From Escherichia coli (lineage in GTDB: Bacteria > Pseudomonadota > Gammaproteobacteria > Enterobacterales > Enterobacteriaceae), in NCBI RefSeq assembly GCF_051903065.1, contig NZ_CP178438.1: a stretch of DNA of 64,000 bases; one strand, given 5' to 3'. The position numbers are program-made. Of the stretch, positions 9,501-12,500 are shown piece after piece. Each line of letters starts with the position of its first letter. Position 1 is the stretch's first letter.

Positions 9501-12500
9501 TGAAATCCCGGCGATTGTCGATGTTTTTCGCTTTTTCGCGGGTGCGGCGCGCTGTCTGAATGGTCTGGCGGCAGGTGAATATCTTGAAGGTCATACTTCG
9601 ATGATCCGTCGCGATCCGTTGGGGGTCGTGGCTTCTATCGCACCGTGGAATTATCCGCTGATGATGGCAGCGTGGAAACTGGCTCCGGCGCTGGCGGCAG
9701 GGAACTGCGTAGTGCTTAAACCATCAGAAATTACCCCGCTGACCGCGTTGAAGTTGGCAGAGCTGGCGAAAGATATCTTCCCGGCAGGCGTGATTAACGT
9801 ACTGTTTGGCAGAGGCAAAACGGTGGGCGATCCGCTGACCGGACATCCTAAAGTGCGGATGGTGTCGCTGACGGGCTCTATCGCCACCGGCGAGCACATC
9901 ATCAGCCATACCGCGCCGTCCATTAAGCGTACTCATATGGAACTTGGTGGCAAAGCGCCAGTGATTGTTTTTGATGATGCGGATATTGAAGCAGTGGTCG
10001 AAGGTGTACGTACATTTGGCTATTACAATGCTGGACAGGATTGTACTGCGGCTTGTCGGATCTACGCGCAAAAAGGCATTTACGATACGCTGGTGGAAAA
10101 ACTGGGTGCTGCGGTGGCAACGTTAAAATCTGGTGCGCCGGATGACGAGTCTACGGAGCTTGGACCTTTAAGCTCGCTGACGCATCTCGAACGCGTCAGC
10201 AAGGCAGTAGAAGAGGCGAAAGCGACAGGGCACATCAAAGTGATCACTGGCGGTGAAAAGCGCAAGGGTAATGGCTATTACTATGCGCCGACGCTGCTGG
10301 CTGGCGCATTACAGGACGATGCCATCGTGCAAAAAGAGGTATTTGGTCCAGTAGTGAGTGTTACGCTCTTCGACAACGAAGAACAGGTGGTGAACTGGGC
10401 GAATGACAGCCAGTACGGACTTGCATCTTCGGTATGGACGAAAGATGTGGGCAGGGCGCATCGCGTCAGTGCACGGCTGCAATATGGTTGTACCTGGGTC
10501 AATACCCATTTCATGCTGGTAAGTGAAATGCCGCACGGTGGGCAGAAACTTTCTGGTTACGGCAAGGATATGTCACTTTATGGGCTGGAGGATTACACCG
10601 TCGTCCGCCACGTCATGGTTAAACATTAAGGATAATATTGCAGATCGTAAGAGTATGAGATGATCTTACGTACTGTCAGAGCACTGATTTCTCTGACAGT
10701 ACGTGCTGCGTGCAAAATCACTACATCAAATAAACCAGCCAAATCTCATAGAGATAAGAGTAAACAAACCAACAGCAGCAAAGACATTTATCAGTACTAC
10801 AGTTCTACTGGAAACATTCATTTTTGCCACCTTTTATCATTGCCCCTATGTGTATAGTACGGGTTAAGAAAATCCGCAATAATACTCATTCTGAAGATGG
10901 ATAAGGGCAAGTTGCTGTTTGATGTTTTTTTCTCAAACCGGTTAAAAAACTTGATGCACGTCAAAAAATGACGCATATTTGCGCGCGTTTTATTCATCTG
11001 GCTGGACGCCCGTACATGTCTCTCTATCAACATATGCTTGTTTTTTATGCGGTTATGGCAGCAATCTCATTTCTTATCACCTGGTTTCTTTCTCACGATA
11101 AGAAACGCATCCGTTTCTTAAGCGCCTTTCTGGTGGGGGCAACATGGCCGATGAGTTTCCCGGTGGCGCTGTTGTTTTCACTGTTTTAAATCTTACTCAC
11201 TGGCTTGACGGCACCACGCAGACTTATATCATTTGGATGAATCGATAAATTTCACAAGTGGCTAAGGAGAAAGTATGTCGCATCTGGATGAAGTCATCGC
11301 GCGCGTGGATGCCGCGATTGAAGAGAGCGTCATTGCCCATATGAACGAATTATTAATCGCCCTGAGCGATGACGCGGAGTTAAGTCGGGAAGATCGCTAC
11401 ACCCAGCAGCAACGTCTGCGCACAGCGATCGCCCATCACGGTCGCAAGCATAAAGAAGATATGGAAGCGCGCCACGAACAGTTAACCAAAGGCGGCACCA
11501 TCCTGTGATTAAAATGAGCGTCTGGCCACCAACCAGGCGCCAACCACAAGTAAAATTGCGCCACAAATTGGGCCGAACAACGCCCGTAGTGGTACGCCAT
11601 GACTGCGGAAGATATCCAGCACCAGACCGCCAATCAGCTGGCTGGCGACCAGTACTGCAATAGTTGTCGCCGCTCCCACATTCTGATATCCGCTGATACT
11701 GGCGAAGACAAAAAACGATCCCAGCAAGCCAGGTATAAGTGTCCACCAGCGCACGCTGGACACCAGTTCGCCAAACCCCGCCATACCTTGTTTAAACCAT
11801 AAAATAGAAACAAAGAGCACAATCCCCACCAGTGAGTTCAGCAACATGGCGATGAGAATGGTAGAGGAGGTCTGGGTGATGCGAACCATCAGCGTGTTCT
11901 GGACTACCAGACCAATTCCGGCGGCAATCAAAAAGGCAAGGGTGAGCGACTGATTCATCCAATCGCGTCCGGTTCAGTGCGTTCGTCGAGTTGCAACTGC
12001 ATAAATGTCAGATCCAGCCAGCGCCCAAATTTAGTGCCCACCTGCGGCATTTGTGCGGTGACGACAAATCCCAGCGACTGGTGCAGATGCAGCGAGGCCT
12101 GATTTTGCGATTCGATTCCGGCGACCATGACATGCTTCCCGCAATCCCGCGCTTCATCAATCAATCGGCTTAACAATTTACGCCCCAGACCTTTGCCCTG
12201 ATGATCGGGATGGACATAAACCGAATGTTCCACGGTATGGCGAAAACCATCGAAACTACGCCAGTCGCCAAATGAGGCATATCCCGTCACTACGCCATCT
12301 TCTTCACTTACCAGCACCGGATAACCTGCTATGGTCCGCGCTTCAAACCAGGCAATGCGGTTATCTGCATCCACCGTTTGGTCATTCCAGATAGCCGCCG
12401 TATACAACACGGCGTGGTTATAAATTTCCGCAATGGCAGCACAGTCGGCTTTGCGGGCAAAACGGATGGACATGTCTGGCCTCAATAAAATAATGATGAT

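Follow-up and report, generated by a model that had tools for sequence, protein, structure and literature searches.

The systems that come closest to the locus treated here, the divergent yncL-ortT gene pair in a 64,000-nt stretch of Escherichia coli DNA (contig NZ_CP178438.1; the whole stretch is called the window below), are the E. coli OrtT and YncL peptides themselves, the type V GhoT/GhoS system, and TisB/IstR-1. OrtT acts as a protein, being toxic while a start-codon mutant is harmless (PMC4344625); the K-12 protein, 98% identical to the one encoded in the window, causes membrane damage, lysis and loss of ATP (PMC4344625), and its toxicity is abolished by the F38R substitution (PMC4344625). 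The ortT gene is induced by the stringent response (PMC4344625), during which OrtT has been shown to damage the membrane, lower ATP and slow growth. GhoS fails to neutralise OrtT, and the physiological triggers of GhoT and OrtT differ (PMC4344625); a search for an OrtT antitoxin that covered YdcY, GhoS, flanking intergenic RNA and a genomic library yielded none (PMC4344625). YncL produced from a plasmid causes depolarisation detected with DiBAC4(3), nucleoid condensation and sensitisation to magainin-2 (PMC12542507), the published depolarisation being sublethal. The YncL protein has been detected and is an in vivo substrate of RseP, by which it is cleaved (PMC10470546); it is induced in minimal medium and by heat shock (Hemm and colleagues, as summarised in PMC12542507), and maps of RNA interactions pair yncL mRNA with KilS and RprA.

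The region is, with high confidence, the well-known E. coli patD / yncL / ortT / ydcY locus, in which yncL and ortT are two independent, divergent genes with promoters of their own. The pair itself consists of two coding sequences:

10726-10821, minus strand: yncL, encoding a 31-aa single-helix membrane peptide, MNVSSRTVVLINVFAAVGLFTLISMRFGWFI (family model, annotation and selection).
11016-11189, plus strand: ortT (ydcX), encoding a 57-aa two-helix toxin of the GhoT/OrtT family (Pfam, homologues and selection).

Both are already described and routinely annotated E. coli genes. Over 681 bp the sequence agrees fully (100%) with several E. coli chromosomes of RefSeq in which patD, yncL, ortT and ydcY are annotated; the locus occurs in 5415 of 5426 complete E. 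coli genomes, with yncL and ortT annotated in about 5,400 of the 5,426, and K-12 MG1655 has the same genes at the same spacing (96, 194 and 85 bp; window positions equal K-12 U00096.3 positions minus 1506373). A first-pass annotation, made from the sequence of the window, had placed the 31-aa minus-strand and 57-aa plus-strand frames in a 0.5-kb gap (10646-11189), where both are confirmed, and the names that it attached to them are borne out by RefSeq; its remark that such genes are easy to overlook is contradicted by their annotation in nearly all complete E. coli genomes. Its description of them as small toxic membrane peptides stands as regards small size and membrane activity (PMC4344625 for OrtT, PMC12542507 for YncL), and fails in the likeness to TisB that came with it. 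The overexpression and membrane-potential experiments that it proposed are already in print for OrtT (PMC4344625) and YncL (PMC12542507), and failure of the two frames to be translated, which would have spoken against them, is contradicted by published data.

Open reading frames (ORFs) this short are frequent by chance, 74 of at least 20 aa being found in 4 kb, so that the reality of the two genes rests on other evidence, namely family models, selection and annotation. YncL matches the NCBIfam equivalog NF000537 at 72.5 bits (cut-off 35) over residues 1-30 of 30, and OrtT matches Pfam PF10753, 'Toxin_GhoT_OrtT', at 97.1 bits (cut-off 22.1), its residues 4-57 lying on profile positions 1-55 of 55. 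Against the Salmonella, Citrobacter and Intestinirhabdus orthologues the ratio of nonsynonymous to synonymous substitution (dN/dS; Nei-Gojobori) is 0.06-0.32 for yncL and 0.02-0.06 for ortT, values to be read with synonymous sites near saturation in both cases; judged by these ratios, both genes are under purifying selection. For YncL a grand average of hydropathy of 1.39, taken together with its dN/dS, supports the view that the frame is coding. The K-12 peptide is 97% identical, with F13 in place of the V13 of the window peptide, an allelic difference only, and the Salmonella peptide (STnc1110, STM14_1932) is 81% identical and alike in position and orientation. K-12 OrtT (YdcX) is 98% identical, with one A/S difference, and equal in length, neighbours and spacing; the window carries an allele of the same gene. 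A longer, 73-aa OrtT starting from the ATG at 10968 was rejected, as the Pfam match begins at the methionine of the 57-aa form and homologues of nine genera begin there.

Within its family OrtT is readily placed. Its hydropathy peaks in the N- and C-terminal halves, which are separated by a basic loop, HDKKRIR, and F38 is present. GhoT is 65% identical over all 57 residues, likewise has two predicted helices, and shares the C-terminal motif TWPxSxPVALLFSLF. However, whereas GhoT has its ghoS partner, ortT has no adjacent ghoS-like gene in the window or in any locus of a comparison set comprising the ortT-flanking loci of 80 species, where tblastn with GhoS found no homologue. The lack of a ghoS-type neighbour and the site downstream of patD are those of the OrtT subtype, and all 80 loci of the set are of OrtT type (closer to OrtT than to GhoT), most of them also lying downstream of patD.

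The likeness to TisB claimed in the first-pass annotation carries with it a different reading of the locus, in which OrtT would be a type I toxin and a small RNA encoded close by, antisense or divergent, would control its mRNA. OrtT is small, hydrophobic and toxic, and a divergent short RNA (the yncL mRNA, in Salmonella the small RNA STnc1110) does lie 194 bp upstream of ortT, loosely as in the tisB/istR layout; TisB, too, is a small hydrophobic inner-membrane depolariser that reduces growth. That likeness is one of effect only. TisB has 29 aa and one helix and OrtT 57 aa and two helices, with no sequence similarity: neither OrtT nor YncL could be aligned with K-12 TisB by BLASTP at E<=100, and the Pfam matches at E<=1 include no TisB family. 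A LexA box with correctly spaced halves is likewise missing. Moreover, TisB/IstR-1 has an antisense RNA antitoxin, and the ortT locus is without one by each of the measures applied: Rfam yields no family match within 10000-12000 at E<=1 (and, over the full window, nothing but the fdnG SECIS element); the ortT leader has no conserved RNA structure that would mask the ribosome site (RNAalifold: 3 invariant pairs, -0.3 kcal/mol) and is less structured than shuffled sequence (z +2.2); and flanking intergenic RNA left OrtT toxicity unreduced (PMC4344625). Since, in addition, 50 of the 80 species carry ortT without an adjacent yncL, control of the type I kind is extremely improbable.

Given that no cognate antitoxin has been found for OrtT, control of ortT has to be transcriptional, and attention turns to the region upstream of its start codon, where two elements lie:

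10951-10964, plus strand: FNR box TTGATgcacGTCAA, agreeing with 9 of 10 consensus positions, its left half doubling as the putative ortT -35.
10974-10987, plus strand: -10-like CATATT (10974-10979) and a G+C-rich stretch, TGCGCGCG, 88-95% conserved.

The FNR consensus is TTGAT-N4-ATCAA (PMC3688515). In the single 64-kb window FNR-like matches occur at chance level (4 found, 3.1 expected), and the weight of the box therefore rests on its conservation, which was surveyed in 81 ortT loci. In these loci the arrangement AAACTTGAT-N4-(A/G)TCAA-N8-GCATATTGCG(C/T)GCG stands 61-67 nt before the ATG of ortT. Conservation is 97-100% in the half-sites TTGAT and TCA, as against 39-67% for the central four bases and 39-88% for the spacer that follows; CATATT begins exactly 23 nt after the start of the box in 77 of the 81 loci, and TTGATNNNNATCAA is matched with at most one mismatch in 66 of them. 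The distance from box to ortT is kept in genera that lack yncL, which identifies ortT as the target of the FNR site. This assignment bears on published binding data: the box sequence of the window lies under a chromatin immunoprecipitation (ChIP)-chip peak of FNR assigned to ydcX (PMC1802558), and a reproducible FNR ChIP-seq/ChIP-chip peak, 'yncL/ydcX', with a position weight matrix score (PWM) of 14.54, was listed with its target as 'indistinguishable' (PMC3688515, Tables S5, S6 and S9). FNR, oxygen and nitric oxide (NO) go unmentioned in the OrtT paper (PMC4344625).

The direction in which FNR would act depends on which promoter elements are taken as real. With TTGATG as the -35, a 17-nt spacer and CATATT as the -10, a role that CATATT would have by position and conservation, the centre of the box falls near -28.5, a position suggestive of promoter occlusion. 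Anaerobically, FNR sitting on the -35 and the spacer would shut the ortT promoter, and the toxin would be expressed only when FNR is inactive, in the presence of oxygen or NO. The rise of ydcX in nitrate-grown, NO-stressed CFT073 (PMC5320621), given below, counts in favour of FNR control of ortT. Repression of ortT by such occlusion is favoured over activation, at what we judge to be roughly even chances of being correct. Two points weigh against it. The G+C-rich discriminator would normally predict down-regulation by ppGpp, whereas ortT is reported to be stringent-induced; and a class II geometry is also available, in which the T-rich stretch after GCGCGCG would serve as -10 and the centre of the box, at about -43.5 relative to the resulting start, falls within the published -41.5 ± 4. 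From that position FNR would activate ortT, possibly with NarL/NarP under nitrate, a reading with which two published observations agree: ydcX is up 11.85-fold, alongside fdnG, which FNR and NarL activate, when a CFT073 mutant that accumulates NO is grown with nitrate under anaerobic conditions (PMC5320621), and at many promoters FNR binding has no visible effect until a second factor joins in (PMC3688515). However, conservation of the putative downstream -10 is poor (39-91% per position), and Salmonella and Citrobacter lack it, whereas CATATT is 88-95% conserved at the ideal 17-nt spacing from TTGATG, and expression at yncL/ydcX showed no change that depended on FNR in anaerobic glucose minimal medium (PMC3688515). 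Activation from the class II position is thus possible, if somewhat doubtful.

A few further signals lie in the same region. Published Term-seq data contain a weak 'orphan' 3' end (score 848) at window position 10984 on the plus strand (K-12 1517357), 32 nt upstream of the ortT ATG and inside GCGCGCG; it adjoins a small palindrome, ACGCATATTTGCGCGCGT, with an A-run on one side and a T-run on the other, and patD read-through, a transcript antisense to yncL, or one from an upstream start are candidate origins. A terminator-like site on the minus strand, 10988-10971, is at chance level (1 found, 1.7 expected) and was set aside, as was a similarity to NsrR sites near CATATT, seen by eye, which chance would account for and which neither Salmonella nor Citrobacter keeps.

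On the other side of the spacer yncL has signals of its own:

10827-10833, minus strand: yncL Shine-Dalgarno sequence AAGGTGG, 5 nt before the ATG and invariant in the E. coli/Salmonella/Citrobacter alignment.
10851-10879, minus strand: putative yncL promoter, with -35 TTGCGG (10874-10879), a 17-nt spacer and -10 CTATACA (10851-10857).

In the same alignment the yncL-ortT spacer contains two conserved blocks, one on the yncL side and one on the ortT side, and the putative yncL promoter block is almost invariant. With these putative hexamers, the promoter has a C at -13 and a TATAC core, both typical of sigmaS promoters, a character that would fit the Salmonella orthologue STM14_1932/STnc1110, first catalogued as a small RNA and dependent on sigmaS (PMC5437024). 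The peptide itself is produced during stress or in stationary phase. A perfect NarL-type heptamer, TACTCAT, at 10883-10889 just upstream of the yncL -35 was discarded, being expected by chance and not kept in Salmonella or Citrobacter. A point against the account of YncL given here is that its published phenotypes come from plasmid expression; a role at native level is putative.

Whether the two genes also belong together was considered across the comparison set, in which the presence of yncL was judged beside ortT only. Divergent yncL-ortT adjacency, at 176-198 bp, is found in 30 of the 80 species (in Escherichia, Salmonella, Citrobacter, Intestinirhabdus and Pluralibacter): 27 of these have a 31-aa yncL product and a start-to-start gap of 189-198 bp, and the 3 more distant ones a 30-aa product and a gap of 176-183 bp. 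The other 50 species (Enterobacter, Kosakonia, Leclercia, Lelliottia, Phytobacter, Buttiauxella, Pantoea and others) have no yncL at that position. The pair has outlasted rearrangement of its flanks: in Citrobacter additional genes stand between patD and yncL, and in both Salmonella and Citrobacter srfC takes the position held by ydcY. Such retention is compatible with a functional link, and just as much so with a 190-bp spacer passed down vertically in a single clade. Were the link real, yncL and ortT would form a functional two-gene module, either of co-regulated depolarising peptides or with YncL modulating OrtT; the spacing held at 176-198 bp in 30 species despite rearrangement on both sides speaks for it, as does the fact that YncL and OrtT are both stress-induced membrane depolarisers, and the yncL ORF itself was not among the candidate-antitoxin constructs of PMC4344625. 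Yet in 50 of the 80 species ortT comes with the same promoter block and lacks a neighbouring yncL, rearrangements would rarely fall within a spacer of 190 bp so that its retention in one clade may reflect vertical inheritance, YncL depolarises rather than protects, a genomic library screen gave no suppressor of OrtT, and the two conserved promoters are separate and differ in their features. A module of either form is quite improbable. The more inclusive proposal, that an antitoxin-less ortT is gated by oxygen/NO through an Enterobacteriaceae-wide FNR box in its core promoter and is, in Escherichia, Salmonella and Citrobacter, coupled to a divergent sigmaS-dependent yncL as a depolarisation module, is unlikely as a whole; if true, it would link the unexplained published FNR ChIP peak with a physiology of OrtT described without FNR.

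The survey of ortT loci also brought out several variant arrangements. Tandem ortT paralogues, without an adjacent yncL, occur in Kosakonia, Phytobacter and relatives, about 90-220 bp apart and about 60-67% identical to each other's class (L005, at 3001-3183 and 3270-3443, L025, L029, L031, L032, L045, L051, L054, L067, L071, L074, L075, L078 and L082), and two Enterobacter sp. loci (L033 and L034) have a second ortT copy about 940 bp upstream. In Buttiauxella (L007, 2609-2797) a 62-aa DUF1508 gene fills the divergent slot upstream of ortT that yncL occupies in E. coli, and in Citrobacter (L003/L004, 2624-2869, plus strand) a public gene call places an 81-aa ORF antisense over yncL, with no Pfam match and probably spurious. 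Enterobacter, Lelliottia and Leclercia loci with no adjacent yncL (L035, L050, L052 and others) share a conserved block, GTTGTTATTAnCC...GTGGTTAT..TGTAAC, about 30-75 nt upstream of the FNR box.

The interval between patD and yncL contains two inverted repeats, and published transcript ends lie beside and beyond them:

9205-10629, plus strand: patD, gamma-aminobutyraldehyde dehydrogenase, a 474-aa ORF next to yncL, upstream of it and convergent with it, annotated both in K-12 and in an identical locus of RefSeq.
10668-10704, minus strand: strong hairpin in the yncL 3' untranslated region, with perfect 14-nt arms (10668-10681/10691-10704), beginning 21 nt past the yncL stop.
10647-10671, no strand assigned: weak hairpin, CGTAAGA / TCTTACG, with a 7-bp stem and an 11-nt loop.
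10666 (K-12 1517039), minus strand: dominant 3' end of the yncL transcript (Term-seq), 2 nt past the base of the strong stem.
10380 (K-12 1516753), minus strand: Rho-dependent (bicyclomycin-sensitive) end, antisense inside patD (Rho score 16.6, p 5e-21; Adams 2021, PMC7815308).

Folded alone, the strong hairpin has a G+C-rich stem of 14-15 bp with a stability of about -23 kcal/mol on both strands (z -5.1 and -5.9), and the weak one has -10 to -11.5 kcal/mol (z -1.7 and -2.6); the inverted-repeat scan reports the second repeat as 12 nt, 83%, at 10641-10652/10664-10675. Within E. coli the weak hairpin varies, one arm being substituted in K-12 and both arms differing in other E. coli and Escherichia lineages, and it is probably a chance feature. 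The strong hairpin, in contrast, has a counterpart in every genus with yncL, a strong stem-loop lying about 20-35 nt past the yncL stop in the 30 yncL loci of the 80 species. In an alignment of 26 Escherichia, Salmonella and Citrobacter sequences 80.8% of the cells of the stem are standard pairs, as against 37-52% when the partners are slid by 1-3 columns, and 8 of the 16 stem pairs have changed on both sides (for example G-C to U-A in Escherichia and A-U to G-C in Salmonella); with few independent events, this covariation is supportive and not overwhelming. In Citrobacter freundii-type genomes, where MFS and AraC-type genes part patD from yncL, the hairpin stays by yncL, and it therefore belongs to yncL. 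Its identity as a dispersed repeat or REP element was rejected, since it occurs once in the window and at one site in each genome. A LexA box in the stem ends TACTGT...ACAGTA was rejected as well: the halves are 19 nt apart and not 8, and other E. coli lineages have GCACTGT...ACAGTGC. The patD-yncL spacer as a whole (10627-10730) exists as two diverged E. coli haplotypes, 749 genomes being only 80-90% identical to the window; the haplotypes keep the hairpin through compensatory changes (CGTAC...GTACG as against CGCAC...GTGCG).

The first-pass annotation had described the gene pair as bracketed by hairpins and separated from patD by two back-to-back terminator hairpins. Both hairpins in fact sit on the patD side, in the interval bounded by the stop codons of patD (10629) and yncL (10726), and the 85 bp past ortT are less structured than shuffled sequence (z +1.5); of the two supposed terminators, one conserved hairpin is upheld, while the second is weak and unconserved and the U-tract of a terminator is missing. 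No such tract (at least 5 T in 8 nt) follows the strong stem on either strand (downstream plus strand GCTGCGTG, minus strand AAGATCAT), the terminator scan flags neither hairpin, and neither precedes a T-run on either strand. The strong palindrome could even so be taken as a bidirectional intrinsic terminator serving both patD and yncL, as it is a perfect inverted repeat of equal stability on both strands between two convergent genes and is followed on the yncL strand, 2 nt past the stem, by a very strong 3' end: in MG1655 the minus-strand end at 1517039 has Term-seq scores of 75,265 and 536,300 in two of three conditions (Adams 2021, PMC7815308). Against such a role stand the missing T-runs on both sides of a palindrome that the terminator scan did not call; the Term-seq 'patD' entries inspected, all of which are the minus-strand end, with no plus-strand patD 3' end among them; the read-through documented both by the Rho-dependent end 286 nt downstream and by the inclusion of patD-yncL among 165 convergent overlapping pairs (the 'excludome') found in at least half of 58 MG1655 transcriptomes (PMC12288877); the attachment of the hairpin to yncL in Citrobacter, where patD is not its neighbour; and the ordinary GC stem with U-tract that follows yncL in distant genera (Pluralibacter and others; L068, L073, L085). 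A bidirectional terminator is on these grounds doubtful. The U-less hairpin is instead more readily seen as mainly a stabiliser of the 3' end of yncL mRNA or a leaky terminator; polymerases that read through would run antisense into patD, where on the published Term-seq and bicyclomycin data Rho halts them about 290 nt further on. It counts against any firm assignment that the stem is U-less and that the end at 10666 could arise by termination or by exonucleolytic trimming after Rho has terminated the transcript, both of which are possible.

The remaining features of the neighbourhood lie outside the pair:

11205-11232, plus strand: promoter-like site TTGACG-16-TATCAT, which would be ydcY's own.
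11275-11508, plus strand: ydcY coding sequence (DUF2526), the downstream neighbour.

Outside Escherichia, ydcY is missing beside ortT. In the E. coli collection 6 of 5431 matches to the yncL-ortT region are on plasmid-typed records and a plasmid-borne ydcX has been reported in Pantoea (PMC11467524), from which it follows that ydcX is occasionally extrachromosomal. Elsewhere in the window, at 44697-44755 on the plus strand, a SECIS_3 selenocysteine insertion element scores 84.3 bits (gathering score 63) and is presumably, by its position, the selenocysteine site of fdnG.

As a finding, the pair amounts to the rediscovery of two annotated and experimentally studied genes and matters little in itself. 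What the analysis adds is modest, consisting of additions to published data sets and not of a new kind of system: the assignment of a deeply conserved FNR box to ortT, and the U-less yncL hairpin. If FNR does gate the antitoxin-less OrtT, this would explain how cells keep the toxin silent, and the yncL hairpin offers a clean case of a conserved U-less stem that defines the 3' end of a very abundant RNA upstream of a Rho-dependent stop. Each of these additions has its counterpart among described systems. The ortT promoter resembles the FNR-bound promoters without known outcome (Myers 2013, categories 3-5) in its high-scoring box, its reproducible peak and the lack of an expression change in one condition, and differs from them in that its box is additionally kept at fixed spacing in about 80 species, including those without yncL. 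The end of the yncL transcript is like those of Rho-terminated transcripts with hairpin-defined 3' ends, sharing with them the stable U-less stem, the end 2 nt past the stem and the bicyclomycin-sensitive end downstream; and with the convergent 'excludon' overlaps yncL shares its overlapping, convergent transcription with patD.

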